Assembly (NCBI GenBank): GCA_965228855.1
Contig: CBDDIJ010000002.1
Span: 2,048,001 to 2,112,000, forward strand
Source of the DNA: Candidatus Obscuribacterales bacterium
Lineage (GTDB): Bacteria; Cyanobacteriota; Vampirovibrionia; Obscuribacterales; Obscuribacteraceae
DNA length: 64,000 bases
Direction: 5' to 3'
Shown here: one piece after another, positions 2,125 through 55,750 of the stretch
Numbering within the stretch: position 1 is the stretch's first letter
How the letters are laid out: each line of letters starts with the position of its first letter
Made by a program: the position numbers and the translations under genes
The notes under the pieces: generated by a model
What the model saw: the letters and a program-made list of their open reading frames with translations, nothing else
What the model was told of the DNA's origin: nothing
The model's database searches: none

Positions 2125-2790
2125 CTAGTTATTTCTGGTGCGATCGTACAAATCTTGCGAAACTGGCTCCAGTGCATCGCCCTTCTGGAGATACACCGCT
2201 ACTGCGACCTGCCGTGCAGACGCTGGATTTTCCTTGCGAATTATTCTTCGGGATAGCACGTTCTTCGAACCGAGGATTGAAACGTCTACGCTGTAGAAGT
2301 TCGCTTTGCACTGAATTTTGACAGGTTCGTTCGTCTCATTTTTGAACTTCAGATCCTGGCGTCCGTACCATACTGTGGCGTCAAGCCCGGGAAGGACCGT
2401 CGAGATCGTTCGCGAATGAGGAGTTCGTTCCTCAATCTTTAAACCGGATTCAAGTGCCGCTTTGTAGATCAGTGATGAAACCAAACAAACGCCACCGCCC
2501 TCGGTGCTGGCGGTACCATTTCCTAAGTAGGTCGGCGCGGCAACGAAGCCGCGTTCATATGTTCGCGGCCCTACGACGCGATTGAATGAGAAGGTTTCGC
2601 CCGGACGAAGAACATATTCGTCGATTCTCCGACAAGCCTGTCCGATATTTACCTTTGACTTACGGTTTAAAGAGGTGATTCTGCTGTGAGCCTGTCCGAC
2701 TGTAGTTTGGCATGGTCGATCTTGCCAGTAACACAGAAGTATCACGAGAGGCAGAAGTATGATCAGATAGGACTTGTCCATCTTGATCAT
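2125..2790 (-). CDS. VanW family protein with N-terminal membrane anchor
   Basis: Motifs PGETFSFNRVVGPR, GGGVCLVSS, ERTPHS, PGLDATV and DLKFKN. Start overlaps the macroglobulin stop (ATGA). Confidence 0.9.
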   Translation of the reverse strand: MIKMDKSYLIILLPLVILLCYWQDRPCQTTVGQAHSRITSLNRKSKVNIGQACRRIDEYVLRPGETFSFNRVVGPRTYERGFVAAPTYLGNGTASTEGGGVCLVSSLIYKAALESGLKIEERTPHSRTISTVLPGLDATVWYGRQDLKFKNETNEPVKIQCKANFYSVDVSILGSKNVLSRRIIRKENPASARQVAVAVYLQKGDALEPVSQDLYDRTRNN

Positions 2791-5700
2791 TTTATTGTCA
2801 GCTCCTCAGACACGGTGTAGCCGCGGATGAGCTTGGTGTACATTCCAGCTAGCGAGACCGGGTTGACGTTGACCTTGCCCGGCAGCTCCATTCTTAACAG
2901 GCAGCTGAACTCTTTCTTGCCTGCCGGAATAGTCGTGCCGAAAAATACGATTTTATCGTCCAGGATATCCTGGTGTGACCACCAGGTTCCACCCCAGTCA
3001 CCGGATATAGTGGCGCTCGAATCTGAGCCTTCGTCTACCGCTTGTTGGGCGCCGCGGCTCTTAACCACTTCAGCACCGCTAGGCAGCGGGCATTCTACGA
3101 TCACATATGGCATCGAAATCGGGCTGTCGACCAATACCTTCATCAGTATGGTTTCGCCGGCCTTGATAGTGCCGCCGTTAAAGGGTTTCGAAACCACTTT
3201 CAAAACGCCGTCAGTGCCTGCCGGTTGAGATTCTAGCCGGTAGAATGTGCGCGACATCGTCAGACCGGCTGGGCTGTTCTTTACGGGGACCGCTTCCCCA
3301 GGTTTCATCGTTTTCGTGTAGCTGAGAATGGTGTTGTAATACAGCTTACCCATTCCAACTTTCTGCAGTTGAACAGCTCCAGTGGCAGGTTTGAAAGTCG
3401 GTAGCGCGAATGATTTTTCTTTGCTGAAACGCTCGCCGCCGGAGAAAGAAATTTCTGTTTGCAGCACGTTGTCCATCAGGACTCTAGCCGAAACCGTCTC
3501 TCCGCTGTTCGCGGCGCTCATGAGCGCGTCGTCCAGGAGGGCGCGCAGAACCTCGCTGGTTGTCTTGGTATTGCACCAGCCGTCGCGATCGCGATGAAGC
3601 ATCATCCACATCTTTATCTGCTCCAGCAGGTCTGTTTTGTCAGACTTGTTAGCCAGCATTGCGCGGAAAGCCAGCGCCGTTGTTTCCTCTCCTGTGTAGC
3701 GGTAGGACCAGTCAGTGACACCAACTAGTTTCAATCGCTTCAACATCGCATCAGTGTGTTCCCAGTCAACTGTAGCATCCGATTTGTTTGCGATAGCGAT
3801 CAAACGATCACTGGCTTTCTGAGCGGATTCTGTTTCGCCCAGGTTTTTGAACGCAAGTGCTGCGTATGCTAATGGCTCAGGCGTGAAAGCTGGTATCTCT
3901 TTCTTGAGCCATGCAATCACAGATGGTGTCGGTTTAGCCTTGTAGACGCTCATGCAATAAACCAATCTAGCCATATCGCAGCGGCGCGTTTCGGCGTTCC
4001 AGTCCTTAACGAGTTTCGGATCGGAAAGTTGTTTCTCCAGGGCAGTAGTGTTGTCCTGCAGCCACTTCAGACCACGAGTTTGCATTGATTGATCTACGCT
4101 GTAGCCGGCATCTTTCAAGAGATAGAGGCCTTCGAGAACAAGCGAAGTCATATAAGGATCGCTCGCGTCGTCCTTCCACCAACCCCAACCGCCGTCGGAA
4201 TGTTGGTGCTCAGACAATTTAGCCATTCCCATCTGACGAACCTTCTCGAATCGTTTAATCGATTCTGGAAGCAAGGGAACGTTCAACTTCTTGTTTAACT
4301 GCATCGCGACGATTGATGGCATAAAGCGCGACATCGTTTGCTCTGTACAACCGTATGGGTAGTCGATCAGCGAGTCGAAAGTGCCCTGCACCTGACCAAT
4401 CACCGATCCGGCAAGATTTACTTGCATCTTTGGTGAGAAGACCTGCCCCACTTCGGCGTGCGAAATCTGAACAGACGGAGTAGCATCGGTCAGGACGCCG
4501 GAGTCTGCATTGAACAATGGGATGCCCAGTGAGTTTACGGGAAGTTTTCTCTCCAGGTAATCTCCGCCCGTCTGACCTTGAGCTTTCACGCGAATCATGC
4601 CGACACCAGGTTTTGCAATCGATACGGGCCAGGTGAATTTGCCAACCTTCTCAGGCTCAACTGACAGATTCTGTGCTAGTGGCAGGTTGGTTTTGAACTG
4701 ATCGGAAACCGTGAGGGTGAGAGTGATGTTTTGCTTTTGATCCGAGTAGTTATGAACCACGGCGGAAATTTCTCCGCCATCACCTTCGGTGTAGAAGCGT
4801 GGCAATGCCAGACGCGCGATGATGTCTTGCGTCACCAGGATTGATTGCGTCGTGGCTCCGACATCGCAGTTCATGCTGACACCGCGGACAGTGGCGCGCC
4901 AGGTTGTGAGATTGTCGGGAAGTACAACATTGGCGGTGACAACACCGTTTGAATCGGTCACGAGGTGCGGAAGCCATGCTGCCGTGTCCTTGAAATTCTT
5001 ACGAAGCCTGGGCTCGTCCAGCGTTTTGTCCGGACCACCGGAATAGCTCTCCGGGAAGGAGCAGAATGTGCTCACTCGATTGGAGCGCTGGTTGTAGAAC
5101 TTCTTGCGAATATCGCCGGCGTTTTCCGGCCTGATGCTATAGATGCTCTCATCGACGACGCCCAGTGAAACTTCTGTGTTCGGTGCCGGTCGACCATCTT
5201 CGTATGTCGCCTTAATCGTATATTTTGCCGTCTCACCGGCTTTGTATTTCGGTTTGTCAGTTTCGATAGCGAGCTTCAAGAAATGATCTTTTGGTGAAAC
5301 CTTGAGCATCTCTGTGCTTGCGTAGAACTGCTTTTTCTTTGCGACCATGGTTACGCCAACGAAGACATTCGGCGCGTATGCTTTGTCGATCGGAATCTCC
5401 ACCAGATTCGCAGTTGCTTTGAGCGGAACAATGCGGTGGCTATATAGAGTTGTTCCTTCTACGGTGACGAGCGCATCGTAGCCTTCTTTGCCGGTGAATG
5501 GCCCTGAAATCATCACACGGGCGGTGTCACCAACGGTGTAAACGCTCTTGTTGAGGGAGATCTTGAAAGATTGCTTCTCTGAATCGCCGCGATAGAACGG
5601 GTACGAATCGCTTGCTACCCAGATAGAGCCGGTATCAAGTATGGTGTCACCCTTGGCGTCTTTAGCCGTGGCTGTGATATAAAAAGTGTCGGTCGGCCAT

Positions 5701-7793
5701 TGCGTGCCGGCGTTTGCTTTGAACAAGACTTTGCCGTCTGGTCCGGTCGTGACGTCGCCTTCGTTTAGAACGACTTCCTTTTCTTCAGTGTGGGTTACTG
5801 CGTTCCAAGGGAAACGTGAAACTTTGACGTGCACTTTCTGATTGGCAAGCGGCTTACCGTCATAGTCGCGAGCTTCTATGGTGGCCTCGACCCCTTCGCC
5901 AGCCCGCACTACATAGTTGGTCGGGTCTACAAACAGGGCGAAATCTCCAGGCGTTACGGAGACATGCCCGCTGCCGGTTACGGTTAGCTGACTTATGTCA
6001 GTGACCTCGGCTTCTATTTTGTAATCGCGCTCGCGATACTCATAGAAGTAGCTGGACGATGCGTAGTTGGGTTCCACTTTCTTGGTGTCGAAAGTAATTG
6101 TTGCCTGACCGTTTTCGTCGGTTTGCGCGACGCCTTCAGTGAGGAAGCTGCCACCATAGTCATAGTCGCCTTCGCCATCATTGTCATTCCAGTCGTCATA
6201 GAATTCTTCGTAAGCTGGTCGTGGTTGCAGCTTATAGCGGATCGAATAGTCCGGCGAAGCATAGACGGAGTATTTGACGCGCGCATTAGCGACTGGTCCG
6301 CCAAAGAAATAGGTAGCGTTTAGTGTGGCCGAAACCTTGCTGCCGGCAGTCACGCGAGGCGCATTCGGTTTGATTTCAATCTTGTATTCAGGCTTTCTGT
6401 ATTGATCTACTTCAAAATATTCGTAGTCGGTATTGCCGGTCGATGCATATGTGAGTTTGCATGAATAGCCGCCGGTCTTGCCCTCTTCAGGGATGTTGAA
6501 CGTGCCATTGAAGGTTCCGAATTTTGTTGTCTTAATAGTTCCCGAATATAATTGAACGTTGGACGGATCCTCGATGACAACGGTAATTTCCTCTCCTTCG
6601 CCGATGTTCTCGAATCCTTTAGCTGTCAGTTGTCTGGCAACTCCTTTGAAGCAAACCGTTTGTCCAAGCCGGTAAATGGGCCTGTCGGTATAGAAGTAAG
6701 TGGTGATGTCATCGCTACTGCCGCCGTAGTAGTAGCCTCCGGCTGCGTAGGCCGTGTGACCTTGACGCTCTCCGATGATCGTCGACTCGTAATTCTCTCC
6801 ATCGCCGTGCTTGATGAATGCGATGCCGTCCGCGCCGGTAGTGGCTTTAGCGAGGACTTTGCTGGCATCCGAATCCTTGGGAATCATGCTCAGATTGACT
6901 CCACTGATACCGGCAAGCGTGTTTAAATCAATCGCGCGAACAAGAGTCCCCTCAGGCGAATGCTTGGCTACAAGCCCGATATCGCTTACCGTGAACCAGG
7001 AAATTGCCGTGCACTGTTTTTCTCCCGTGAGATCTTTGCACTCTGCCACCACGAAGTAATCTCCGGGCGTTAGATCTTTGTCCAGTTTGAAATCAGCTCT
7101 GCTTGAGTCTTCGAAATTGGGCGAGAGGTGGCGTTTGAGCTCTTTGATCGGTTTTTCCGCCGTCGCAAATGGATTGGTCAATTTCGAATTGTATGAACCG
7201 TACAAACTCAAGTCATTCGACATATGCATGTCGACTTTGGGCAAAACATTTATTGCGGTCGATAAAAACGGTTTCTTGTAAAGCTTGACTGTTGCTTCAG
7301 TGGCACCGGTCGCGCGGATCCAGAACGAAGGATTCTCTTGTGTGGTGAAGACGCGCACGTTGCTGGCTATCGTCACGGACGGTTCCAGTACATGCAGTTT
7401 GATCGTATCAGGAAGCGCCTGGATTTTGCCATCTTTAACCTGCACACCCTGGACATATTCGGTTTCGAAACCGGGTGCGCGAACCTTAATTTCGTACTCA
7501 CCGACCGGAAGCTGGTCGATTGTGAATGTGCCGTCTTCCTTTACCCATGCGCCTCGAGCCAGAGTGATGCCGTCTCTGGGTCCAGTCGCCACTGCATAGA
7601 CTTTGTTTTGCCGAATGTCATAGGAATACAATCCGAATTTCTTTTCTTCCAGCGCTATGGACCCGCTCACAGAGCCGGACGGTCGCTGAAGGAAAATCGC
7701 AAGTGCCGCGGCGACTAACGCGTAAAGCAGCATAACTTCCCATGACAGGAAGAGGTTGCGTTGTGGTGATTGATTGGTTTTATCTGTAGACAT
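2787..7793 (-). CDS. Bacterial alpha-2-macroglobulin (MG2/A2M family) with intact thioester motif
   Basis: About 1670 aa with an N-terminal TM helix. Motifs YTDRPIYRLGQTV, LRKNFKDTAAW, LPDNLTTWR, YPYGCTEQ (thioester CxEQ at 4338..4349) and DGGWGWW. Start could be 7793, 7799 or 7802. Confidence 0.95.
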   Translation of the reverse strand: MSTDKTNQSPQRNLFLSWEVMLLYALVAAALAIFLQRPSGSVSGSIALEEKKFGLYSYDIRQNKVYAVATGPRDGITLARGAWVKEDGTFTIDQLPVGEYEIKVRAPGFETEYVQGVQVKDGKIQALPDTIKLHVLEPSVTIASNVRVFTTQENPSFWIRATGATEATVKLYKKPFLSTAINVLPKVDMHMSNDLSLYGSYNSKLTNPFATAEKPIKELKRHLSPNFEDSSRADFKLDKDLTPGDYFVVAECKDLTGEKQCTAISWFTVSDIGLVAKHSPEGTLVRAIDLNTLAGISGVNLSMIPKDSDASKVLAKATTGADGIAFIKHGDGENYESTIIGERQGHTAYAAGGYYYGGSSDDITTYFYTDRPIYRLGQTVCFKGVARQLTAKGFENIGEGEEITVVIEDPSNVQLYSGTIKTTKFGTFNGTFNIPEEGKTGGYSCKLTYASTGNTDYEYFEVDQYRKPEYKIEIKPNAPRVTAGSKVSATLNATYFFGGPVANARVKYSVYASPDYSIRYKLQPRPAYEEFYDDWNDNDGEGDYDYGGSFLTEGVAQTDENGQATITFDTKKVEPNYASSSYFYEYRERDYKIEAEVTDISQLTVTGSGHVSVTPGDFALFVDPTNYVVRAGEGVEATIEARDYDGKPLANQKVHVKVSRFPWNAVTHTEEKEVVLNEGDVTTGPDGKVLFKANAGTQWPTDTFYITATAKDAKGDTILDTGSIWVASDSYPFYRGDSEKQSFKISLNKSVYTVGDTARVMISGPFTGKEGYDALVTVEGTTLYSHRIVPLKATANLVEIPIDKAYAPNVFVGVTMVAKKKQFYASTEMLKVSPKDHFLKLAIETDKPKYKAGETAKYTIKATYEDGRPAPNTEVSLGVVDESIYSIRPENAGDIRKKFYNQRSNRVSTFCSFPESYSGGPDKTLDEPRLRKNFKDTAAWLPHLVTDSNGVVTANVVLPDNLTTWRATVRGVSMNCDVGATTQSILVTQDIIARLALPRFYTEGDGGEISAVVHNYSDQKQNITLTLTVSDQFKTNLPLAQNLSVEPEKVGKFTWPVSIAKPGVGMIRVKAQGQTGGDYLERKLPVNSLGIPLFNADSGVLTDATPSVQISHAEVGQVFSPKMQVNLAGSVIGQVQGTFDSLIDYPYGCTEQTMSRFMPSIVAMQLNKKLNVPLLPESIKRFEKVRQMGMAKLSEHQHSDGGWGWWKDDASDPYMTSLVLEGLYLLKDAGYSVDQSMQTRGLKWLQDNTTALEKQLSDPKLVKDWNAETRRCDMARLVYCMSVYKAKPTPSVIAWLKKEIPAFTPEPLAYAALAFKNLGETESAQKASDRLIAIANKSDATVDWEHTDAMLKRLKLVGVTDWSYRYTGEETTALAFRAMLANKSDKTDLLEQIKMWMMLHRDRDGWCNTKTTSEVLRALLDDALMSAANSGETVSARVLMDNVLQTEISFSGGERFSKEKSFALPTFKPATGAVQLQKVGMGKLYYNTILSYTKTMKPGEAVPVKNSPAGLTMSRTFYRLESQPAGTDGVLKVVSKPFNGGTIKAGETILMKVLVDSPISMPYVIVECPLPSGAEVVKSRGAQQAVDEGSDSSATISGDWGGTWWSHQDILDDKIVFFGTTIPAGKKEFSCLLRMELPGKVNVNPVSLAGMYTKLIRGYTVSEELTIK

Positions 7794-8583
7794 CGGCATC
7801 AATTCTGTACAGTTGGCATTGTTGGGATGATGGGATTCCGGCTTTTAGTTTGGTTTTCACCAGCTGATAGTGAGGGTCGCTCGCTTCACCCGGTAATAGA
7901 ACCGCTCCTTTGCCTCCGGCTCGCACCATTAGACCTTGTTTCAAAGGCTGCATGGTACTTATGGAGTTTATAGGAACGATCCTCTTTACTACGGTTACTT
8001 GAGGTATAAGTAGATTAATCTCGCTCTTTTTTATTTTTGAATATCGGTAGTCCTTGTTTAACGCATCTTCAGTTGTGTAGATCGTGGATTCGACGAGGTT
8101 TTTGTGAGTGGCAGCCACATTGCCCCAGCAGGCCCGCGTATCGCCGTTTTTGATCAAGGTGATAAACAGTCCCGCGTTTTTCTGATGATGTTTTTTGACG
8201 GAAAATCTTTTTGCAAGCTCGTCAAGTGAAAGCGTCCTCCAGCTTTCGTTTTCATCTGCACCGAAGTGGTGAAGAATCGTGAGCCGTGCAATCTCGGGTA
8301 ACGATGCGTCGATTGTCCCACCGATAGTTTCCTTTGAAAACATTGTCTTTCTGCCGCTAGACTTGCCTTTCGGCACTTCTGTTTGATTTACGTGTTGCTC
8401 GATGTTTTTAGTGAGGAGGGTTTCATTGAAGGCTGGCGCTGCGAATATTGTTTCGAAAGAGCTGATGGGCGGCTTGATCTGCAGCGATTTTTCAATCTCT
8501 CCATTACAATATGGCGACCATTCAAGTGTGACGGCAAGACATAACAAGGTCGTCAGGCATAGTAAGACAGATTGCATTAGCAC
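7780..8583 (-). CDS. AMMECR1-domain protein with N-terminal hydrophobic signal/anchor
   Basis: GLFITL..NGDTRACWG (variant of LRGCIG), DYRYSKI (DPRF-like), GLMVRAGGKGAVLLPGE and KTKLKAGI. Stop overlaps the A2M start. Confidence 0.8.
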   Translation of the reverse strand: MLMQSVLLCLTTLLCLAVTLEWSPYCNGEIEKSLQIKPPISSFETIFAAPAFNETLLTKNIEQHVNQTEVPKGKSSGRKTMFSKETIGGTIDASLPEIARLTILHHFGADENESWRTLSLDELAKRFSVKKHHQKNAGLFITLIKNGDTRACWGNVAATHKNLVESTIYTTEDALNKDYRYSKIKKSEINLLIPQVTVVKRIVPINSISTMQPLKQGLMVRAGGKGAVLLPGEASDPHYQLVKTKLKAGIPSSQQCQLYRIDADVYR

Positions 8584-8718
8584 TCTCTCGTTGCTTGTGA
8601 AAGATCTACGGAGCCCTGGAGACTATTATGGGAGTGCTCCGCTAAACTGTTGGAAACCGCAGGTTGAAACCGTGTGAGATGATTGTAAACTTTGTCGCGG
8701 AGAAAAATTCGATTCTTG

Positions 8719-9705
8719 ATGGCACGCAAAGATGATACGGCAAAACAGGCGGAAAGCCTCAACAGACGACGGTTTCTGAAGTCGATGTTTGGGCTCGGCG
8801 GTGCGCTGGAGGCAACTCAGAGCGAACCTGAAGAGGCTGCCGCAGCTAATCCGAGTTCCAAGAAGGCAGTGAAATCTTCCGCTGCGACAGGGGCTCTATT
8901 TTTCTGGGCTGATTTGCAAAATGGCAACGTCGGTTTTCCATCGGGGCTACAAGTGCCGCATTCGCGTGCCGGTAGTGTTATGAAGTTGATCACTGCAGCA
9001 TGTCTTTTAGAGGAAGGCGTTTTTAATCCGAACGAAACAGAAGAATGCACGGGGTCGGTCTCTATCGGCGGGGAAACTTATGGCTGCGGAAAAGGGCATG
9101 GAATCCTGACAATCGATCAGGCGATCGCGCTATCGTGCAATGTGTTTTTTGCGAAAGTGTCGCGCAAAATAGGTCCGATGGCGATCATCGATTACGCCAG
9201 GAAGTTCGGAATGGATTCACCTGCAGCCGGCTTCAAATGTGGTGCCTTTCCCACTAAACCGAAAGCTTCGACAGCTAGATACGCGCTGGGTCTGTCGGAC
9301 GATATGCAGCCAAGCGCTCTCCAAATGCTTAGGCTGGCTGCTATCTTCGGAACTGAAGGCAAGGTGCCGGCTATGAAAAACGCGGGCATGTTTGATGTGA
9401 ATGATCTGAGTATCAAACCGTTTTCACTGGATTTAAGAGAGACGACGTTTCGCCGAATTCGTAAGGGAATGGTCCTAGCCTGTGAGCAAGGTACAGCAAT
9501 GAAGCTTGATCCCGAGCACAAATTGAAAGTCGCAGCTAAGACGGGAACCGTTCCTCATGGGAAGAACTTTGAATCTTGGGTAATTGGTTATTTCCCATAC
9601 GATAAGCCTGTACATGCCTTTTGCTTGTTTGCACCATCAGGAACCAGTCGCGATAGCGCCGTGCCGCAAGCTCGCGATAAGCTGATGTCGGTTTACTGGC
9701 CGTGA
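8719..9705 (+). CDS. Penicillin-binding transpeptidase-domain-only protein with twin-arginine motif
   Basis: SxxK (GSVMK), SxN (LSCN) and KTG (AKTGT) all present. N-terminal NRRRFLK; no dimerisation or transglycosylase domain. Alternative TTG start at 8692. Confidence 0.85.
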   Translation: MARKDDTAKQAESLNRRRFLKSMFGLGGALEATQSEPEEAAAANPSSKKAVKSSAATGALFFWADLQNGNVGFPSGLQVPHSRAGSVMKLITAACLLEEGVFNPNETEECTGSVSIGGETYGCGKGHGILTIDQAIALSCNVFFAKVSRKIGPMAIIDYARKFGMDSPAAGFKCGAFPTKPKASTARYALGLSDDMQPSALQMLRLAAIFGTEGKVPAMKNAGMFDVNDLSIKPFSLDLRETTFRRIRKGMVLACEQGTAMKLDPEHKLKVAAKTGTVPHGKNFESWVIGYFPYDKPVHAFCLFAPSGTSRDSAVPQARDKLMSVYWP

Positions 9706-10907
9706 GCCCAGTTAGTATGCTGATGTGGTTTTGCATATCAAAGTTTAGACTGATACTACTGCTGGTGGTCCTCGCTGGCTTGAATGGGGCTCCTGCACTT
9801 GCGCTGCCGTCTAACTTGCGAGTGAAACTGTTCGAAGCGCACGGTAGACTCGAGTCCGTGCATATTCGCGGTCCGCTCGATATCGTAGTACCAGGACAAA
9901 AGAGGATCTCTAAAGCTGAGTGGATAAGGGTCTCCTCAAGAAATGGGCAGATAGAGTTGTTTTCGTCTGGCAACTCGCATCATTCGTTTTTGTCCTGTCA
10001 AAAGTTGGTTGTACAACCGCTAGATCGTCGCGGAGTGCGAATTAAAGTCAATCGAGACAACATAGAAAGAGCCTATCTTGGCCGATTGAACTTCTCTGTC
10101 GGCGAAACGGCCAAACTTCCGTCACTGAAGATAGTCAACGAGCTGCCTACATTTGAATACGTGGCTTCTGTTGTTGGTTCCGAGTCGCCTGTTCGGAGTC
10201 CGCCAGAGGCAATGAAGGCGCTGGCTGTTTTAGTCATCGCTATTGTCGAACAGAAAGGCGAACGCAGCTTGGTTGGTGACTCGACCAAAGAGCAAGCTTA
10301 TAAAGGATGCGAGCACGCAACGCCATCAGTCTTCGCCGCTGTCAAAGCCGTGTACGGCAAGCGGCTTTTTTATAAGAATTCGCCTGTACAAGCATTTTTT
10401 CACTCTACCTGCGCCGGTGGCACTAGTCGAGGCGTCGACATCTTTGGTAAGAATGCCGGACCGCTTGTTTATCTGGAGTCGGTGCCGTGCGAGTACTGCA
10501 AGAACTCACCGTTCTGGGATTTGAAGGTTTCCTCGTTGCCGTTATCGACAATGAAGCAGGCGTTCGGGGGAAGACTGAGTGCCACTAAATACGATGCTCA
10601 AGATCGTCCAACACAAGTAGAGGTTCTGGACGGTAAGTCGGCCGGCAACGTGATGTCCGGTTACGAGGCGTGGCTCAGAATTGGTCGAACTTACGGCTGG
10701 GGAAAGGTGCCAGGGACTCGCTACCAATTTCGTGATAACAACGAGAAATTGGTGGATATCGAATCGTCAGGTGCTGGCCATGGCGTAGGTTATTGCCAAT
10801 GGGGAGGCGTGGGTATGGCAAAGCAAGGGAAGAAGTACGACGAGATTCTGAGGTTTTATTTTCCGAAGTGTAATCTTCGGACGATTGCGGTGAGGGCGCC
10901 TCGTTAA
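9702..10907 (+). CDS. SpoIID/LytB domain lytic transglycosylase-like protein
   Basis: Signal peptide, VNELPTFEYVASVVGSE (catalytic Glu position), EAMKALAV, EQAYKG, FHSTCAGGT, GHGVGYCQWG and YDEILRFYFP. GTGA overlap with the PBP stop. Confidence 0.9.
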   Translation: MSPVSMLMWFCISKFRLILLLVVLAGLNGAPALALPSNLRVKLFEAHGRLESVHIRGPLDIVVPGQKRISKAEWIRVSSRNGQIELFSSGNSHHSFLSCQKLVVQPLDRRGVRIKVNRDNIERAYLGRLNFSVGETAKLPSLKIVNELPTFEYVASVVGSESPVRSPPEAMKALAVLVIAIVEQKGERSLVGDSTKEQAYKGCEHATPSVFAAVKAVYGKRLFYKNSPVQAFFHSTCAGGTSRGVDIFGKNAGPLVYLESVPCEYCKNSPFWDLKVSSLPLSTMKQAFGGRLSATKYDAQDRPTQVEVLDGKSAGNVMSGYEAWLRIGRTYGWGKVPGTRYQFRDNNEKLVDIESSGAGHGVGYCQWGGVGMAKQGKKYDEILRFYFPKCNLRTIAVRAPR

Positions 10908-11373: not shown

Positions 11374-12108
11374 GTGAGTTATATGAGCACAACCTCGAAA
11401 CTTACAACGGCGGAACAGATCGAAGATTTCATCTCGAAACATCCCGGCGAAGAACTGATCACGCGAAGGCAACTGATACCGTTTGGTTCGGCTGCGGTAG
11501 TCGACAGCATTATTTTCAAGCTCGTTCACAAAACAGGCTCATTAATCCGCATAGCCTGGGGCTGTTATCGAAAACGCGAACGCGTCACGGAAGTTACAGG
11601 AGCGGAGGTGGCGCGAGTCAAGGCTGCAGCTTTCGGACGCAGCGTTGTTTCGTCCCCGCGCACAGTGGCTTTTAACTTGGGTATTTCCCTTAGGCCGGCA
11701 GCACCATTTGAATTTCTGACCAGTGGTCGAAGCAGTTCTTTTAAATTTCAAAATCAAAGGATTGTTTTGACAGGAGCCAGTTCCCGCAAAATGTCGTTGG
11801 GTGAGAGTAAAATCGGGCAGACCATTCGAGCACTTTGGCAGCTAGGCAAGTCTATTGTCGATGAACACGTTATCGGAAAGGCAACCGAATCCTTTTCGAC
11901 CGATGAGAGAATCGAAATGAGCAAGCTATGTGCGTCTATGCCGGAGTGGCTCGGGCAATTCTTCTATCCCTGGAGACTCCTGGAGAAAGTTTCTAGACCG
12001 CAATTCCAATATCCTGACGATTTGGAGCAGCTATGGCTAAACGAAGCATCCGCTCTCTATTGTGTTAGTTCCGACCCTGGCGGAAGCCGTTTGTCTCTCA
12101 CTGGTTAG
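11374..12108 (+). CDS. DUF6088 / AbiEi-antitoxin-like winged-helix protein
   Basis: N-terminal LITRRQLIPFGSAAVVDSIIFKLV..GSLIRIAWGCY, then FLTSGRSSSF and IRALWQLGK...MPEWL. GAGGAGG RBS upstream. Confidence 0.75.
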   Translation: MSYMSTTSKLTTAEQIEDFISKHPGEELITRRQLIPFGSAAVVDSIIFKLVHKTGSLIRIAWGCYRKRERVTEVTGAEVARVKAAAFGRSVVSSPRTVAFNLGISLRPAAPFEFLTSGRSSSFKFQNQRIVLTGASSRKMSLGESKIGQTIRALWQLGKSIVDEHVIGKATESFSTDERIEMSKLCASMPEWLGQFFYPWRLLEKVSRPQFQYPDDLEQLWLNEASALYCVSSDPGGSRLSLTG

Positions 12109-12274: not shown

Positions 12275-13069
12275 TCATGAAGCCGCTTTTATGCCACCGG
12301 ACGCGATGGCGCTTGCCGACTGGCTAAAGAGTTGAAAACGTGAACGAATTGCTCGTGGATCTCGCTCGACGACGTCGATGCAATTTGCTGGAATTCCCAT
12401 TTCCGTTCCGATCTTTTTGAAATCTTCGTTGTCGAGTTGCAAGCCCATGAAGAAAATCTTGTGTTTTTCCATTGCGAGCATGTCCTTCACCACCTTTGCC
12501 ACATCTGCAGCAGTTGATCGTCCTTCATTATTGATGCCGTCGGTCATTAATAGGGTGACTGAACGCGTCTGGATTCCATATGTCTCCTCCCACCACTTTG
12601 TCCTTGCGATAACGCTTCCAAGCGTTTCCAGACAGCGGTCGTATAACGGTGTTCCCGAGCCTGCGATGAAACCCTTTCTCTCTAGTCGCGGCGCCGCCTT
12701 CAAATTGGACCAGCGGAATTGTTCTTCGCTTCCAGTGATGTGACGCGTATACAGCTTGCTGTGGTTCAACAGTATTGTCAGTGATTCGATCGAATTCACT
12801 GCTCGGGCACCGATTAGTGAATTCACGACGAGGTTGTGTCCCTCGATAACGGCATTATCGTTGTCGTTGAATTCCATCGATGGACTATTGTCTATCAGCA
12901 TGCATAGCTGAGTTTGTTCTGTCACAGTCGGTTTCACGACCGGAGCCGCCATTGTGCGGTTGATGCGTGTGGATAAACCGTTTAATAGGGCTGCTGAACC
13001 AGGCGAGATCTCGCCGGCATCGAGGGATTCTTGGAAAAGGTCGGATGCATCTGGTGTGTCTGAACTCAT
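12275..13069 (-). CDS. vWA (TerY-like) domain protein
   Basis: MIDAS motifs IDNSPSM (DxSxS), GTPLYD and LMTDG. RBS AAGGAG. Confidence 0.85.
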   Translation of the reverse strand: MSSDTPDASDLFQESLDAGEISPGSAALLNGLSTRINRTMAAPVVKPTVTEQTQLCMLIDNSPSMEFNDNDNAVIEGHNLVVNSLIGARAVNSIESLTILLNHSKLYTRHITGSEEQFRWSNLKAAPRLERKGFIAGSGTPLYDRCLETLGSVIARTKWWEETYGIQTRSVTLLMTDGINNEGRSTAADVAKVVKDMLAMEKHKIFFMGLQLDNEDFKKIGTEMGIPANCIDVVERDPRAIRSRFQLFSQSASAIASGGIKAAS

Positions 13070-13127
13070 AATATTCTCCTTCTGAATGAAATTTTGCCGA
13101 AAATCTTTTTGACCGAACTAATTCGAT

Positions 13128-14174
13128 TCACTCAAAGAGGTCGGGATTGATTCCCGGCCAATCCTGCATAGGCGTTTTCGAATTGACGACGTTCATTCCA
13201 GCCTTTTTGAAATCTGCAATTGCTTCCTGTCCTTGTTGTTCAAAACCGGGAACGGAAGAAGTGCAGTCTTCCAGGATGTACACGCGTTTGGCGAGCGCCG
13301 GATCCTGCGCTTTGATTTTCTTGAGGATGTCGTAGATGGCAGCTCGAACACAGTGCGACTCGGCTTCACCCGCAATTATTAGCGCTTCGTATTTAAGCAA
13401 ATCCTCGACTGCTTTATCCGATTCTTCACCAACGGTGACACCATCGTGCGCCTTCGTTATCTCCGTGCCGAACGGCGAATAGTATTCGCTCAGTGGCAAA
13501 TCGCCCTTCAAACGATACTGCGTTCTGCTCCAGCGAGCGATGTCGTGGAAGTCCACCGCCACTTGAAGCGAAGGGACAATTGCATGACCCGGACTGGCTA
13601 ATCTGCCGTGAACAGGCCACACCACCAGTGGTGGCTTGCCTAAACGAGCTAATTCCTCCGTGTAATGAATCACGTAGTTTTGCAACCAGGGCAGAAATTT
13701 CATGTCTCCAAAGAGAACGTATGCCATTTCCGGGTTGACGAAAATTGTTTTACCGACGTCTCCTGGAAGAACTACGGTGAAACCGTTTGGATGTTTTCCA
13801 TCGCCATCGGTCCAGAATAGCGGATGGAAAATCTGAAAGAGGTAGTGTGTATCCAGTGTCAGAATGATGTCGCTTATTACTCTCATGTTGCGGTAAATGA
13901 ATTCGCATATGTTCGAGGTATCAGACACCGATGCCGGAGCGATCGACAGCTCCCCATCGGCAAGGCAGAAAGTCTTCTGCTGGTCGATGATTGTGAGCGC
14001 AATCGAGTGCTTATCTTTTCTGCGCGGTTCAATTTTGTGAAGGGTTCTCCACTCTGCAGCATTCGCCATGATTTCCTGGTAGTTTGGTGTGAAGAAATCC
14101 GCCACTTTGTTTTTGTCGTACAGAGGTGGGAAAGGCAGTTCATAAGCAGGTTTGCTCTTCAGTACGTTACTCAT
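13128..14174 (-). CDS. Nicotinamidase-like cysteine hydrolase (isochorismatase family)
   Basis: IIDQQKTFC (catalytic Asp), LDTH and WPVH (metal ligands), LKG (Lys), AGEAESHCV (nucleophilic Cys) and LEDCTS. Confidence 0.85.
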   Translation of the reverse strand: MSNVLKSKPAYELPFPPLYDKNKVADFFTPNYQEIMANAAEWRTLHKIEPRRKDKHSIALTIIDQQKTFCLADGELSIAPASVSDTSNICEFIYRNMRVISDIILTLDTHYLFQIFHPLFWTDGDGKHPNGFTVVLPGDVGKTIFVNPEMAYVLFGDMKFLPWLQNYVIHYTEELARLGKPPLVVWPVHGRLASPGHAIVPSLQVAVDFHDIARWSRTQYRLKGDLPLSEYYSPFGTEITKAHDGVTVGEESDKAVEDLLKYEALIIAGEAESHCVRAAIYDILKKIKAQDPALAKRVYILEDCTSSVPGFEQQGQEAIADFKKAGMNVVNSKTPMQDWPGINPDLFE

Positions 14175-14248
14175 ATCGATCTCCTTTGGTCGTTCAAAAC
14201 CGAGCGCGTTGTGGTGCGCGCCGAAACTGCAATTTTCTGTTTAACTAA

Positions 14249-16105
14249 CTAACTAATACTCAGTAATCTGATTGATTTTGAGTTCCACGCGTACAACCCT
14301 CCATTCGTGAAAATCAAGTTGTCTCCTGCTTCCAATATTTGTTCTGGTCCCGTAAACTCTTGCGCGATCCGCAATGACATTACATCTGCTTCCACTTTCG
14401 CTATTCCGCTGTTAGTGGGCACCAACAGCGTTTCTATCATTCCTCCTCTTTGATCCGGTATTGCTGCCGCGCAACTTTGATGAAGTCCATCCATCCAACT
14501 GCCGTTGCCGTCCGGTATTTCGCAGGTTCCCAGGCAACTGCCGCAATCGTTAAAAGCGGTGACGCGATTGAAAACTTGTCCCTTTTCTTCGAAGGTTACG
14601 AGCAACCAGAGTTGTCTTTCCGTAAATCGGCAACTCACTTTCAATAACGTTCCGCGCATCGCGTCTACGTCGAGCAGCTTCCGGCCTATCGTTTCATCGT
14701 CGAACAAGAAAGCTCTTCTAAATTCACCGGCAAGGTAAAACCCAAATCCAAAACTGGGACCAGCCCAAATTCTCGTTTGTTCTTTTAGCACCTCGTCTAT
14801 GAAACTTTTTCTGCCATCTTTGATGCTAAAAAGTTGTCCATCCTCAATGATGTAGCAGGTCCGGTGACTGCAATCGAAAACCGGCTCCCTGTCTCTGAAC
14901 TGGTCTATTACAATTTGGTGGTGAGTGCTATCGTGTGCGAAATGCACTAAGCGTTTTCCTTTTCCGGCAAAGGTTGACGAGTTCTGAAGTGCGAACCGCA
15001 AGTCGCTATCGATTTTTCCTTTGAGAACGACTTGACCATTTTCTCGGATGAATTGCTCTTCGAGGTTGTAGAGATATCTTAGATTGGAGCCATCATGAGT
15101 GACGTTCAGTATTACGCCGTCCGTTGAGAAAACAACTTGAGACTTTCCGTTTGATGCTACTTTAGCCTTAGTGGTCCCTGATGCTGACTTTTTCGAAGGG
15201 CTCAAATTTAGAAGAAGAGGAAGTGGAAACGGTGTCCGCACGTCTTCTTGCAGCATAGCCTCGAAAAAAACAATCAGGTCCCGCGAGAGAATATCTTGAA
15301 TTCTTTTGCCTGCCAGTGGGTAGGATACGTCTTTGTTGAATACTGAAATTCGTTTGAGGGCGCGCTGATCAGGCGAGACTCTTTGCACAGGAAGTTTTGG
15401 TTTGTACACACCGCCGTAGGGATGTACGTTAAGCAGCGCCTCAAATAGCATCGTCGAGAATGAGTACCAGTCTGTCTCCTCTGAAAATCTTTCGCACAAT
15501 CCGATTTGACCATTTGTCAGCTGCAGTACGAGCGGATCCGCATACCTGTTCGTGAAAGTCTTACATGTATACGTTGAGAACTGCATGCTGTCGGTATCGA
15601 CGATGTATGCGTCTTTGCCGGATACTAAAACATTAAGGCTATTGAAGTCACCGATTATGACACCACTTGCGTGCAGAGCTGAAACGGAAGCATGCAAATC
15701 TGAGAACACATCTACAATTGTCGGTATGGAGATGTCTTTTGATTCCTGAAAATCGCGCTGCGAAAATTCGTGCATGCTATTTGCCCGAGTGATGTTCGCC
15801 ATGGTGTAGCCCACAACTCTTCGATCGGCTTGCTGATTCTTGTCGTAAACAAGCCTTAAAGGTGATACTACATGAGGTATCAGCAGCTTCGGGAACTGCT
15901 CCAGTTTGATTTGATGCTCTTGCAGTCTAATCCCGGCAGTCTGAGCGGATCGCAAATCTGACTTGAATTGCGGATGGCTGGGTTGTTTGAACAACTTCAA
16001 TACTTCCTGGTCATCGAGTTTGTAGACTTCAGCTTCGCCCCCTTCTCCGATCAAAGCTGACGGTTGAAGGCGGATTTTTTGATCTTCTATGTAAACAGCA
16101 AACAT
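14249..16105 (-). CDS. YegI/TerY-P-type Ser/Thr protein kinase with C-terminal beta-rich domain
   Basis: IGEGGEAEVY, VLKLF, IIGDFNSLNVLV, IVDTDS, ETDWYSF and VHPYGG. ATG at 16105 with a GAGGT RBS overlapping the PP2C stop. Confidence 0.88.
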   Translation of the reverse strand: MFAVYIEDQKIRLQPSALIGEGGEAEVYKLDDQEVLKLFKQPSHPQFKSDLRSAQTAGIRLQEHQIKLEQFPKLLIPHVVSPLRLVYDKNQQADRRVVGYTMANITRANSMHEFSQRDFQESKDISIPTIVDVFSDLHASVSALHASGVIIGDFNSLNVLVSGKDAYIVDTDSMQFSTYTCKTFTNRYADPLVLQLTNGQIGLCERFSEETDWYSFSTMLFEALLNVHPYGGVYKPKLPVQRVSPDQRALKRISVFNKDVSYPLAGKRIQDILSRDLIVFFEAMLQEDVRTPFPLPLLLNLSPSKKSASGTTKAKVASNGKSQVVFSTDGVILNVTHDGSNLRYLYNLEEQFIRENGQVVLKGKIDSDLRFALQNSSTFAGKGKRLVHFAHDSTHHQIVIDQFRDREPVFDCSHRTCYIIEDGQLFSIKDGRKSFIDEVLKEQTRIWAGPSFGFGFYLAGEFRRAFLFDDETIGRKLLDVDAMRGTLLKVSCRFTERQLWLLVTFEEKGQVFNRVTAFNDCGSCLGTCEIPDGNGSWMDGLHQSCAAAIPDQRGGMIETLLVPTNSGIAKVEADVMSLRIAQEFTGPEQILEAGDNLIFTNGGLYAWNSKSIRLLSIS

Positions 16106-16115
16106 CTTCGTTACC

Positions 16116-17009
16116 TCATCGCCGGCGTAACGCAATTACGGTTGTGTCGTCCGGAAGTAAACCTTGATGGCGTTCCATCCGCATTTCCAGAGAGTTGAAT
16201 GTAGTAACTTCGCTGTTTAGCTGGCGGAGCCACGGCGTTAACGAATGAGGGTTTTCTTCCGTAAAAAAATTGTCGTTAGTCCAGATTTGACTGATGTGTC
16301 CGACTAGCCGGTTTTTACCTGGAATTCTTCGCAGTTCTTTGTCCAGTAAATCTCTCAAACCATCAGTAGCGATCATCACGGTCTCGAGGTCTTCAGTTGG
16401 GATTACTTTGTGTACTTTGATCTTCAGGAAGTCACCTTCGCATCTAGAGTTTGTGAAGAGTGAATATGCAAGATAGGGCGGCGCATTTCCCGGATATGGA
16501 CCAATTTCCCGGAGCTCTCCATTGACTGCGTAGAGCCCGTCTCCCAGCGAAAAGACGACTGTTTTATGCACAGTCACGATGACGCCAACAGTCGTAAAAA
16601 GTAGATAGTCCTGGATGAAGTTTTTGAAGTCGCAGTTGCAATATTCATTGAAATCATGTCTGCAGGTGCCAACTTCCAGACTGCTGATTATTTTTCTAAG
16701 CTGCTTCAAGCAGCGCTTCTTCGTTTGCTCAAGCTGTTCCGAAATCGATTCTTCGGTTGCCACCATGGACAGTGCACCACGACTTGCCAACTCGAGCATC
16801 GCTCGACTTAGAAGTGCTCCACCGATTTTTGCGCCGATTTCCGAATGCCGTCCGCTACCGCAGCCATCGTGAACAAGTGCGATTATGCAATCTTCGAACC
16901 TCTGCACTTCGAAACTGTCTTGATTGTTGGTGCCTTTCAGCAGATTGCCATATCCAATATGAGATCTGCCAGGAATCGTACCAGCAGAGATTTGAAACCC
17001 GAGAGCCAT
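16116..17009 (-). CDS. PP2C-like protein phosphatase (YegK/TerY-P type)
   Basis: GRSH, NNQDS, HDGCGSG, SLGDG, IATDGL and PDDTT motifs. GGAGG RBS. Confidence 0.88.
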   Translation of the reverse strand: MALGFQISAGTIPGRSHIGYGNLLKGTNNQDSFEVQRFEDCIIALVHDGCGSGRHSEIGAKIGGALLSRAMLELASRGALSMVATEESISEQLEQTKKRCLKQLRKIISSLEVGTCRHDFNEYCNCDFKNFIQDYLLFTTVGVIVTVHKTVVFSLGDGLYAVNGELREIGPYPGNAPPYLAYSLFTNSRCEGDFLKIKVHKVIPTEDLETVMIATDGLRDLLDKELRRIPGKNRLVGHISQIWTNDNFFTEENPHSLTPWLRQLNSEVTTFNSLEMRMERHQGLLPDDTTVIALRRR

Positions 17010-17104
17010 TAGAACCTCCCGCGCCTGACTATAAAAAATCGCGCGCTCACGCAGGAAGAACTGTTGTTCGTCCGTGCAAATTATTTTGTTTTGATCTCGC
17101 CCAG

Positions 17105-17125
17105 TAAGCGTTATTTATACGATAA
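17105..17125. promoter_or_regulatory. Putative NrtR operator (21-bp imperfect palindrome with GT-N7-AC core)
   Basis: Minus strand reads TTATC-GT-ATAAATA-AC-GCTTA. It overlaps the predicted -10 box of an operon encoding a nicotinamidase. Confidence 0.7.
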
Positions 17126-17147
17126 CTCTCCGCCGGTTCTTTGTCAA
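17119..17147 (-). promoter_or_regulatory. Sigma70-type promoter of the PP2C-kinase-nicotinamidase-vWA operon
   Basis: Perfect -35 TTGACA (17147..17142), 17-bp spacer, -10 TATCGT (17124..17119). Confidence 0.7.
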
Positions 17148-51063: not shown

Positions 51064-53361
51064 CTAGTAGGTCGCCTCTTTGATTCGTTTGATGGCTTCA
51101 TCGATTCGCTGAATGCGATATTTTTTTCCAGATTCCTCGCTGTAGCGTGGAACAGTCCTTGCTTTCATTGCTTCGAGGGCTGGTAGAGCCGGCTTCGCTT
51201 GCGAACCAAGTTGCCCAAGAATGCCCAGTGCCACAGATTCCAGGTCATCGTCAGCGGTAGCTTCAACCAGGTCGGCAAACATGAGATCTTTGAGTTCCTT
51301 GTGGTTACAGTAGGAGAGAATGGACCGCTTCAGCTCTCTGGGAGCATTTGCATACGCACCCTTAACGTATGGCGCAAACTTCGGACCAATTTTTCCGACC
51401 GTGACCAGCGGCACCATTTGAGTCCTCATCGTCACGTTTGGATCATGTTGGATAAGCCAACCACCAATTTCTAAAGTTCGTTGTCGATCTACGTTCGTGT
51501 ACTCCGTGACTCTAAACAATGTCGATATGGCTGCGCGCCGGACCATGAATGCCTCATCATTTAGAGCACTATATTCGAGTGCCTGCACGCGCTCAGGGGT
51601 GGCTCTCGTCTTAGCAAGTACAGTCGCAGCTTCGGACCTTACCTGTGACTCAAAATCTTCGAGCATGAGCCATACGAGAGTGTCGGTTACAGATGTCGGA
51701 AGGGTTGACTCTGAACCGTAGTAGATCGATTGAATAGCTCGCACACGAGTTTTGGGCTCGTCATCGAAAAATAGCGGACTCAGCGCTTCTAATCCCTTAC
51801 TGTTGAAACGCATGATCAAATCAGTAGTGGCAGGTTGAGCTTCCTGCTTGAATGACGCAACCAGGATTGGAAGAACCGAAGGACCGAAGGCCATAATCGC
51901 AGCTTTTGCCGATGAAGAGATTTTTCTGTCCTGGCTGGAGGCTTCCTCGATCAGTGTTGGCACAATTTTCAGACCCATTTTTCTTAGAGGTTCGACACTC
52001 GCCGAACTCCCGTCTTCGCTCTTCAATAATTCACGAACCTGAAGTCTCTCAGCTTCCGGAATGTCATTCTTGGCTAAGTCTACATCTATAGATGTAAACT
52101 GCTGAGACGGGGCTTTTATGATTGGTTTTGAAACTGTCGGTTTTGTATTTACTTCTAGACCGCTTCCACTTGTGACTCGCGCAGGAATTGTTGTGATACT
52201 ACCAATAGTGCTCTGAATTTTTCCGGTGTACAGCCCCATGAATATCAGAAACGCTATCAGACCTGTCAAAAGGAGAGTCGCGCGAATATTGTTTTGAAAC
52301 GGTTTCAAATTTTTTATGGCACTTTCAACTACATCGATAACCTCAGCCTTGCCGTCAGCGGTTGCTTTCGAGATCGCTTTTACATCAGGCAAATCCAGAC
52401 CGGCTGCTTTGGGCTTGCCACCTTTCTGTATTGCTGCGAGGTCCGTCATCAAGTCGTCTGCGGATTGGTATCGTTTATCCGGCCTCTTCTCGAGGCACTT
52501 CGCCACCACCGCCGCTAACTCCCTGCTGACACCAATCGTCGTTAATGCAGGAGCCTTCTCCTTGACGTGTTTGGTCATCAATTTAAACGGATTCGCTTCT
52601 GAAAACGGTGGTCTGCCGCTGAGCATCTCAAACATAACGCAGCCAAAAGAGTATATGTCAGAGCGGGCATCGAGCTCTTCGCCTTCACATTGCTCCGGGC
52701 TCATGTAAGTTGGGGTTCCAAACACATCACCGACTTGAGTTAGTCCTGTGACAGTCTCCGAAGCTGCTTTATTTACGACCTTTGCTATTCCGAAATCAAC
52801 AACCTTAGCTGTTTCCAGACCGTGCTCTCGCTTCATCAAAATAATGTTGCTGGGTTTCAAATCTCGGTGAATTATTCCCTTCGCATGTGCGTATTTGAGC
52901 GCGTCGCAAATTTCTAGAATCAGCGAAAGGGCTCGATTAGCATCGAGGCTGCCGATTGACTTTATCTCTTCTGACAGGTTCTGCCCCGGAATGTAGTCCA
53001 TCACCACATACGGTGCACCCTTATCGGTTTTTCCGTCGGAAATTACTGCGACTATATTCGGATGGTTCAAGTCCGCCAGCGCCAGTGATTCTTGTTGAAA
53101 GCGCTTCAACGCAGCTCTGTCTGTGGCAAGTTCAGGACGAATGACTTTGATTGCGAGCTTCTGATCAGAGCTTCGTTCCTCTGCCAGATAAACCGTTCCC
53201 ATCCCTCCCTGACCTACGATACCTGTGAGATTGTAATTCGGAGCCACCTCTGGAAAAGAGATTGCCTGCTTTTCCTGAACACCCGAATCATCCGCCACAA
53301 CGATATCGGGAGGAGCGTCTCGGAGAAGATTTTTTTTGTTGTCTGCTGATTCTTGGTGCAT
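51064..53361 (-). CDS. Hanks-type Ser/Thr kinase - TM - HEAT-repeat protein
   Basis: GQGGMGTVY, AIKVI, HRDLKPSN, DFGIAK and GTPTYMSPEQ, then a TM helix and PBS-lyase/HEAT-like repeats. Confidence 0.92.
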   Translation of the reverse strand: MHQESADNKKNLLRDAPPDIVVADDSGVQEKQAISFPEVAPNYNLTGIVGQGGMGTVYLAEERSSDQKLAIKVIRPELATDRAALKRFQQESLALADLNHPNIVAVISDGKTDKGAPYVVMDYIPGQNLSEEIKSIGSLDANRALSLILEICDALKYAHAKGIIHRDLKPSNIILMKREHGLETAKVVDFGIAKVVNKAASETVTGLTQVGDVFGTPTYMSPEQCEGEELDARSDIYSFGCVMFEMLSGRPPFSEANPFKLMTKHVKEKAPALTTIGVSRELAAVVAKCLEKRPDKRYQSADDLMTDLAAIQKGGKPKAAGLDLPDVKAISKATADGKAEVIDVVESAIKNLKPFQNNIRATLLLTGLIAFLIFMGLYTGKIQSTIGSITTIPARVTSGSGLEVNTKPTVSKPIIKAPSQQFTSIDVDLAKNDIPEAERLQVRELLKSEDGSSASVEPLRKMGLKIVPTLIEEASSQDRKISSSAKAAIMAFGPSVLPILVASFKQEAQPATTDLIMRFNSKGLEALSPLFFDDEPKTRVRAIQSIYYGSESTLPTSVTDTLVWLMLEDFESQVRSEAATVLAKTRATPERVQALEYSALNDEAFMVRRAAISTLFRVTEYTNVDRQRTLEIGGWLIQHDPNVTMRTQMVPLVTVGKIGPKFAPYVKGAYANAPRELKRSILSYCNHKELKDLMFADLVEATADDDLESVALGILGQLGSQAKPALPALEAMKARTVPRYSEESGKKYRIQRIDEAIKRIKEATY

Positions 53362-53367
53362 GTTTGC

Positions 53368-55674: not shown

Positions 55675-55750
55675 CTCGGGTTCAGCCTGAGCTCGGGACA
55701 ACAACAATTTGCCCCTAAATAGATAGAACTGAAACAGTTTCTCTAAAAAA

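Follow-up and report, generated by a model that had tools for sequence, protein, structure and literature searches.

A TerY-P-like phosphatase-kinase-vWA triad joined to a nicotinamidase-fold amidase and its apparent wiring into NAD salvage in cells and phages

A stretch of 64,000 nucleotides from a Candidatus Obscuribacterales genome (contig CBDDIJ010000002.1, positions 2,048,001 to 2,112,000; called the window throughout) carries a candidate operon of four minus-strand open reading frames (ORFs) in the order PP2C phosphatase, YegI-like kinase, amidase and vWA protein. We find that these four genes are a fixed, conserved module. The quartet is a genuine and widespread variant of the TerY-P triad that seems not to have been described before, and in which phosphatase, kinase and vWA genes are apparently wired into the salvage of nicotinamide adenine dinucleotide (NAD), in cells as well as in phages. 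Full-text literature searches returned no description of the four-gene set; Anantharaman et al., 2012 (10.1039/c2mb25239b) and the tables of PMC11662467 could bear on its novelty. Here and below, statements on published systems refer to the consulted parts of the cited sources. The features of the operon, in window coordinates, are:

17142..17147, minus strand: -35 hexamer TTGACA of the predicted operon promoter (promoter scan; same spacing to the operator in the relatives' loci L090-L095)
17124-17119, minus strand: -10 hexamer (promoter scan), overlapped by the predicted operator
17105..17125, no strand assigned: 21-bp GT-N7-AC palindrome, predicted NrtR operator (matrix rank 1 in the genome, 26.5 bits)
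16116..17009, minus strand: PP2C-type Ser/Thr phosphatase, 297 amino acids (aa) (PF13672, E 5.5e-18; metal-binding Asp residues conserved)
14249..16108, minus strand: YegI-like Ser/Thr kinase (residues 1-305) with an all-beta C-terminal domain, 619 aa (hhalign to YegI; AlphaFold2)
13128..14174, minus strand: nicotinamidase-fold cysteine amidase, 348 aa (invariant columns; model; Foldseek)
12275..13069, minus strand: divergent TerY-like vWA protein, 264 aa (intact MIDAS; weak YegL match)

The genes are separated by 7 nucleotides (nt; PP2C to kinase), 74 nt (kinase to amidase) and 58 nt (amidase to vWA), taking as the kinase start the ATG that follows GAGG (16108) rather than the TTG at 16135 given by the ORF tool. 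All four proteins have intact catalytic motifs, which are kept across cellular and viral homologues. No clear membrane-spanning segment is seen in any of them (19-residue hydropathy peaks at 1.0-1.7), and neither NCBIfam nor PHROGs holds a name for any of them. An earlier note on this DNA, made from its letters alone, had described four co-oriented, close-set genes with intact motifs, and the reading frames, gaps and residue conservation agree with that description.

A conserved module among NAD genes

Conservation of the set is most apparent from the kinase. In a metagenome survey, the best 80 of 363 kinase loci were dereplicated to 74, of which 36 had at least 2.5 kb of downstream sequence; a few lie on the same contigs as the viral loci described below. 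Amidase and vWA genes accompany the kinase in 35 of these 36 informative loci, and all four genes are present in 34. The same 36 loci hold genes for NrtR (16), a nicotinate-type phosphoribosyltransferase (16), NadE (6), NadD (3) and ARG (2). The order PP2C-kinase-amidase-vWA is found in 66 of the 67 complete non-viral loci (not dereplicated), and the amidase stays with the triad through changes in gene order. The earlier note had named conservation of the four-gene set and linkage to nrtR, pncB and nadE among the points to check. The survey supports both, with nrtR, pncB, nadD/E and ADP-ribose-processing genes as neighbours.

The association is one-sided: the triad almost never occurs without the amidase; the amidase often occurs without the triad. 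Among the best 80 of at least 581 confirmed amidase loci from GTDB genomes, 20 lie close to a triad gene (14 of them with all four genes) and 60 do not. The 20 triad-linked loci come, among others, from oxygenic cyanobacteria, a Woesearchaeota archaeon, Oligoflexia and a CPR genome; the archaeal copy is flanked by nadA-nadC-nadB on one side and by a phosphoribosyltransferase gene on the other. Stand-alone amidases also lie near a phosphoribosyltransferase in 16 of 60 cases. In a FastTree tree of 156 rows, weakly rooted and drawn from a sample biased to close matches, most stand-alone amidases are nested within triad-linked ones, and the triad link may therefore be the older state.

Within the genus, all seven other genomes encode the amidase, at the same chromosomal position wherever contigs allow a look. 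It was found in none of the 17 other genera of the family sampled, and of 301 genomes in the phylum six, including the window genome, carry the vWA gene. The operon lies in ordinary chromosomal surroundings, among genes for alpha-2-macroglobulin, a SpoIID-like protein, an aminotransferase, SelB and UvrD.

A predicted NrtR operator in front of the operon

The earlier note had proposed a single promoter and an NrtR-type operator. As for the promoter, the scan by itself is at chance level (one site found, 5.9 expected in shuffled sequence); what holds is the arrangement of TTGAC and a GT-N7-AC palindrome, whose spacing is the same in six of six genus relatives and in which the palindrome overlaps the -10 box. 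NrtR binds a 21-bp GT-N7-AC consensus, and its binding to DNA is suppressed by ADP-ribose (PMC2330246). By shape and position, the palindrome is thus supported as a predicted NrtR-type operator, in agreement with the earlier proposal, and an nrtR gene is present in the window genome.

Under a matrix derived from six sites in other genomes, all orthologous to the window site, the operator ranks first in the 8.2-Mb genome (26.5 bits; shuffled-genome maxima 20.0-21.3). The second-ranked site (25.0 bits) precedes an SPFH gene and a NAD-kinase-like gene. This SPFH/band-7 pair (L097:3134-5308; G000:C2:1877133-1879307) forms an operon that is present in two of five relatives. It may correspond to Rodionov's nrtX-nrtY, which the consulted part of PMC2330246 does not define. 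A further site, just downstream of nrtR and in front of nadA, scores 16.9 bits in the window genome and is the best of its locus, beside nrtR, in five of five relatives (13.2-20.6 bits). A strict pattern search of the five relatives recovered the operon site each time and no nadA or SPFH site; the matrix search did recover the nadA sites, and for the two relatives that possess the SPFH operon it gave sites of 7.4 and 16.2 bits there.

Beyond the genus, palindromes with at least six of seven arm pairs precede the PP2C gene in 37 of 72 cellular and metagenome loci, where 1.8 would be expected (identical copies were removed and kin retained). The same test found them in 3 of 67 cases before vWA and in 2 of 57 before stand-alone amidases. 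Viral copies are not enriched for NrtR boxes (2 of 41, 1.0 expected).

Phosphatase, kinase and vWA protein

The phosphatase matches PF13672 (E 5.5e-18) and keeps D31, D48-G49, D216-G217 and D287-D288 in at least 70 of 72 homologues; direct BLASTP against Escherichia coli PphC was not significant (E 0.056). The kinase keeps K38, D154, N159, D171, D173 and S174 in at least 74 of 76 homologues. Its family matches E. coli YegI (hhalign P 98.9, E 1.5e-17; BLASTP E 3e-10) and shares the unusual VGD and DxDS motifs with it, S174 aligning with YegI Ser162, a residue required for YegI activity (10.1101/819920). In the AlphaFold2 model (pLDDT 93), a kinase fold (Z 19) is followed by an all-beta region of 28 strands (residues 321-618). 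The top Foldseek matches of the model are to LRRK2, in which a kinase is followed by a WD40 propeller. Given the strand count and the LRRK2 matches, the C-terminal domain is likely a beta-propeller; an ESM Atlas search with this part gave no usable match. The earlier note had suggested the beta-rich domain as a possible sensor, and the domain does model as all-beta. A zinc ribbon follows the kinase domain in most cellular homologues (37 of 46) and in 8 of the 27 viral ones. It is absent from the window kinase and seven close relatives, and by this comparison the genus has lost it.

The vWA protein has a divergent sequence without a Pfam match. Its MIDAS is intact: all 79 sequences compared share D60, S64, T140 and D177, and nearly all share S62. 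Its C-terminal helix is rich in serine (S249 in 79 of 79, S251 in 77 of 79) and can be aligned to a serine-rich segment of YegL. YegL itself is matched weakly (P 38.6, E 3e-4), and the likewise weak matches in the PDB are to integrin I domains. A vWA protein with MIDAS, a PF13672 phosphatase and a YegI-type kinase are therefore each present, as the earlier note had claimed in calling the set a TerY-P-like triad.

The amidase

The amidase is divergent and reaches PF00857 at E 0.02 only, which misses the cut-off. All 79 sequences compared share D64, D108, H110, H189, K223 and C275; by analogy with PncA enzymes, we take Asp64-Lys223-Cys275 to be a PncA-type triad and Asp108-His110-His189 the metal site. 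The ten best Foldseek matches of its model (pLDDT 95.4) are all nicotinamidases (best E 1e-11, 14-18% identity), and a phmmer search of the PDB found no match. From fold, motifs and neighbours we predict that the amidase deamidates nicotinamide. The earlier note had named a nicotinamidase-type enzyme; fold and active-site residues fit that assignment. The protein also has large conserved insertions and an N-terminal arm.

Four amidase frames are longer again, at 578-597 aa and about 240 residues beyond the usual length (L197:7266-9044, L148:9908-11650, L164:2664-4400 and L152:9876-11669); the L197 protein has no Pfam match.

Copies on phages

In the viral survey, the best 80 of 154 amidase loci, together with six vWA loci, collapsed to 38 groups at 90% identity. 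All four genes are present in 35 of these 38 distinct loci, and 22 have a gene for NAD or ADP-ribose metabolism in the flank: NadE in 11, phosphoribosyltransferase in 10, macro-like in 5, NadD in 4, NADAR in 3, KptA in 3, PARP in 2, NrtR in 2 and ARG in 1. These labels were checked by Pfam on seeds, and 'macro-like' is our own label for a PHROG 'phosphatase' match only. The commonest viral order is amidase-vWA-PP2C-kinase (24 of 41), and the huge-phage records LR756500, LR756511 and LR745208 (462-595 kb) carry the complete quartet. Over 41 whole viral records, PF04095 was found in 24 and NadE in 22, and over the 12 near-complete ones in 8 and 5, respectively; PF04095 does not separate PncB from Nampt, and these counts are without a matched control.

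We regard the records as viral because of their IMG/VR classes, six terminal-repeat records, a portal gene in L207, terminase PF03237 in 10 of 41 records and ribosomal L5 in 0 of 41; some host DNA may be present in a few of the 'provirus' records. Of 50,697 records searched, four uncultured ones matched and no cultured phage did. Among gut jumbo phages, 174 of 668 have been reported to carry some complete NAD route, and one jumbo-phage map carries the label pncA-pncB (PMC11662467 and its supplement).

One viral locus (L266:4883-15018) holds, in a single run, pncB, glutamine-dependent nadE, the quartet, a second amidase copy, nadD and nrtR, which by predicted gene content is a complete deamidating salvage route. 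On a 436-kb viral record, a major-vault-protein-like gene (MVP shoulder, vault repeat; L197:858-3464) lies 1 kb upstream of the quartet.

Other genes of the window genome

Elsewhere in the window genome, a Prs-like gene is followed by a gene for a 969-aa glutamine-dependent NadE with a C-terminal PncA-type domain (L300:1822-5865; G000:C2:244821-248864). This locus has no NrtR box, so that a second, canonical nicotinamidase-type domain lies outside the regulon, and the quartet would thus be an inducible extra in this genome. Within the window itself, a block of VanW-like, alpha-2-macroglobulin, AMMECR1-like, transpeptidase and SpoIID-like genes (2125-10907) is kept beside the operon in the genus, and two Ser/Thr kinases with HEAT repeats stand in tandem at 51064-55707 (minus strand).

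Proposed mechanism and competing explanations

The quartet most likely provides an ADP-ribose-induced, phosphorylation-gated entry to nicotinamide salvage, a reading that we hold to be somewhat likelier true than false. NAD cleavage or the turnover of ADP-ribosylation would release free ADP-ribose and nicotinamide. ADP-ribose would lift NrtR from the predicted operator and switch the operon on, and the amidase would convert nicotinamide to nicotinate for the PncB-NadD-NadE route. The kinase may autophosphorylate at Ser174, the position of YegI Ser162, and phosphorylate the vWA protein on its serine-rich tail; PP2C would reverse this, and the state of the vWA protein would gate salvage. Phages, whose copies mostly lack the operator, could use the quartet to keep NAD up against host NADases. 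The operator, the like sites before nadA and the SPFH operon, the nrtR gene and the linkage to NAD genes are directly observed elements of this scheme. The amidase substrate, the kinase target and the gating are our suggestions, and gating by kinase, PP2C and vWA is the most tentative of them.

Several results weigh against this scheme. The amidase has no triad gene nearby at 60 of the 80 genome loci, and of the 50 of these 60 stand-alone-amidase genomes that were tested, 49 lack any vWA homologue. One kinase locus (L186, 17.9 kb) has PP2C and kinase without amidase or vWA within 8 kb downstream. Direct gating is disfavoured by the lack of distinguishing residues in stand-alone amidases: a column comparison with triad-linked ones found three conservative swaps only, and hence no residue marks a triad-binding surface. 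The amidase is also about 130-170 residues longer than most of the solved nicotinamidases it matches, at 14-18% identity. Since the training sites of the operator matrix are orthologous to the window site, the independent part of that result lies in the next-ranked sites, of which the nadA site (16.9 bits) taken alone falls within the shuffled range; no box was found at the pncB and prs-nadE::pncA loci of the window genome, where the best scores were 3.0 and 2.5 bits. Among the 12 near-complete viral records, four are without PF04095 and seven without NadE.

In one alternative, which we consider unlikely, the amidase acts on nicotinamide riboside, nicotinamide mononucleotide (NMN), a damaged pyridine adduct or a partner protein, and the unit serves repair and not simple salvage of the PncA kind. 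The large conserved insertions and N-terminal arm, the canonical PncA-type domain already encoded in the window genome and the nesting of stand-alone copies in the weakly rooted tree all speak for it. Against it stand the complete and invariant PncA-type triad and metal site, nicotinamidases as the ten best fold matches, and pncB, nadD and nadE as the common neighbours. The triad and the amidase might also be merely co-regulated, with triad and ARG handling ADP-ribosylated or damaged proteins, in the way suggested for ARG-centred systems, and the amidase separately clearing nicotinamide. In 5 of the 20 triad-linked loci from genomes, and once at a viral locus, ARG is inserted between the PP2C and kinase genes, viral copies have macro-like, NADAR, PARP and KptA genes beside them, NrtR-ARG-vWA systems have been described (PMC9503650, section 3.8), and the amidase is often found alone. 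However, ARG occurs in 2 of the 36 informative kinase loci against 35 for the amidase, which is kept through changes of gene order, and we think this explanation quite improbable.

The earlier note had gone further and regarded the operon as a candidate defence system. In such a system, comparable to TerY-P, ADP-ribose would induce the operon, the kinase would be a toxic or growth-arresting effector restrained by PP2C, and phage copies would serve superinfection exclusion. Protection against T7-like phages has been reported for the same three domain types (PMC7699616), and the distribution of the quartet is patchy, both in the phylum (vWA) and in the family (amidase). A lone AbiEi-type gene also adjoins the operon. 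Yet the operon has a fixed position among ordinary genes in the genus, NAD synthesis genes are neighbours in cells and phages alike, and the kinase ends in a beta domain and not in the OB fold of the defence form (PMC11090510). PADLOC matches (E 1e-15 or better) were found for 8 of 146 nearest neighbours, each a single gene, in 6 of 30 loci, without a control set, and the AbiEi-type gene, the only defence-like neighbour, is present in one of seven related loci checked, the closest. PADLOC returned no TerY-P match for the window proteins, and the E. coli controls YegI, PphC and YegL were likewise unmatched. With NAD genes as neighbours, wide phage carriage, a fixed place in the genus and, in a count without a control set, little sign of defence islands, the NAD link proposed by the earlier note is supported and its defence reading is not; we judge the latter improbable.

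The AbiEi-type antitoxin gene itself (window 11374-12108, plus strand; DUF6088, PADLOC E 5e-22) has no toxin partner in view, and two further AbiEi-type paralogues, also partnerless-looking, are found on contig C5.

Inducible, phosphorylation-gated salvage could be taken one step further, to a reading that is possible but on balance doubtful. The quartet would then be a NAD rescue device of hosts and phages, in which the propeller senses NAD damage or infection and a vWA relay activates the amidase. Together with PncB-NadD-NadE in large phages, it would form a fourth, deamidating NAD reconstitution pathway, defeating NADase immunity only when needed. If true, this would give TerY-P-type triads their first defined output.

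For TerY-P triads, the literature examined names no kinase target or signal. In the quartet, the triad goes almost invariably with a single enzyme and a single regulator, which makes both the input (ADP-ribose, NAD loss) and the output (nicotinamide salvage) open to direct tests. Gated salvage would also reveal post-translational control of bacterial NAD salvage. If phages rebuild NAD with the quartet, it would add a route to the three known NARP pathways, and its built-in switch might spare them the constitutive cost that NARP2 is reported to carry (PMC13728456).

Comparison with known systems

The E. coli triad consists of YegL, PphC (YegK) and YegI, the latter with two membrane segments (10.1101/819920), and the kinase of the TerY-P form described in defence (Gao 2020) has a C-terminal OB fold (PMC11090510). 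The quartet shares with TerY-P triads a vWA protein with MIDAS, a PP2C phosphatase and a YegI-type kinase with VGD and DxDS motifs, as well as, in most family members other than the window copy, a zinc ribbon after the kinase domain. It differs in its near-obligate amidase, its NrtR operator, the order PP2C-kinase-amidase-vWA and its wide occurrence in phages. Its kinase also ends differently: it is all-beta, modelled as 28 strands, and free of membrane segments, in contrast to YegI, which has two such segments and a HhH match, and to the OB fold of the anti-phage kinase. The quartet probably works like a TerY-P triad; it lacks the TerY-P defence features that could be tested.

The ARG-centred counter-ADP-ribosylation systems (Iyer et al., 2022; PMC9503650) resemble the quartet in their Nudix NrtR-like repressor and in their ARG, vWA, macro and NADAR neighbours. 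Their core, however, is ARG with a rhodanese-type or other phosphatase, and the main text of that paper mentions neither nicotinamidase, isochorismatase nor PP2C. Phages, too, are known to cluster NAD-rebuilding genes, in NARP1 (Adps and Namat), NARP2 (Nampt and Nmnat) and NARP3 (PnuC and NadR) as well as in jumbo-phage pncB-nadD-nadE clusters (PMC13728456, PMC13464706, PMC11662467). None of the three NARP pathways, as described in the consulted parts of these sources, deamidates nicotinamide or comes with a kinase/phosphatase/vWA unit, and the quartet itself, consisting of PP2C, kinase, amidase and vWA, contains no NARP core pair.

The regulatory side finds its closest parallel in the NrtR regulons (Rodionov et al., 2008; PMC2330246). 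Kinase, PP2C and vWA genes are absent from the members listed in the consulted part of that paper, and the quartet amidase belongs to a long, divergent family. The shared features are a 21-bp GT-N7-AC operator that lies across the promoter, an nrtR gene next to nadA, and nicotinamidase with pncB, nadD and nadE as members, for instance in nrtR-pncA-pncB.

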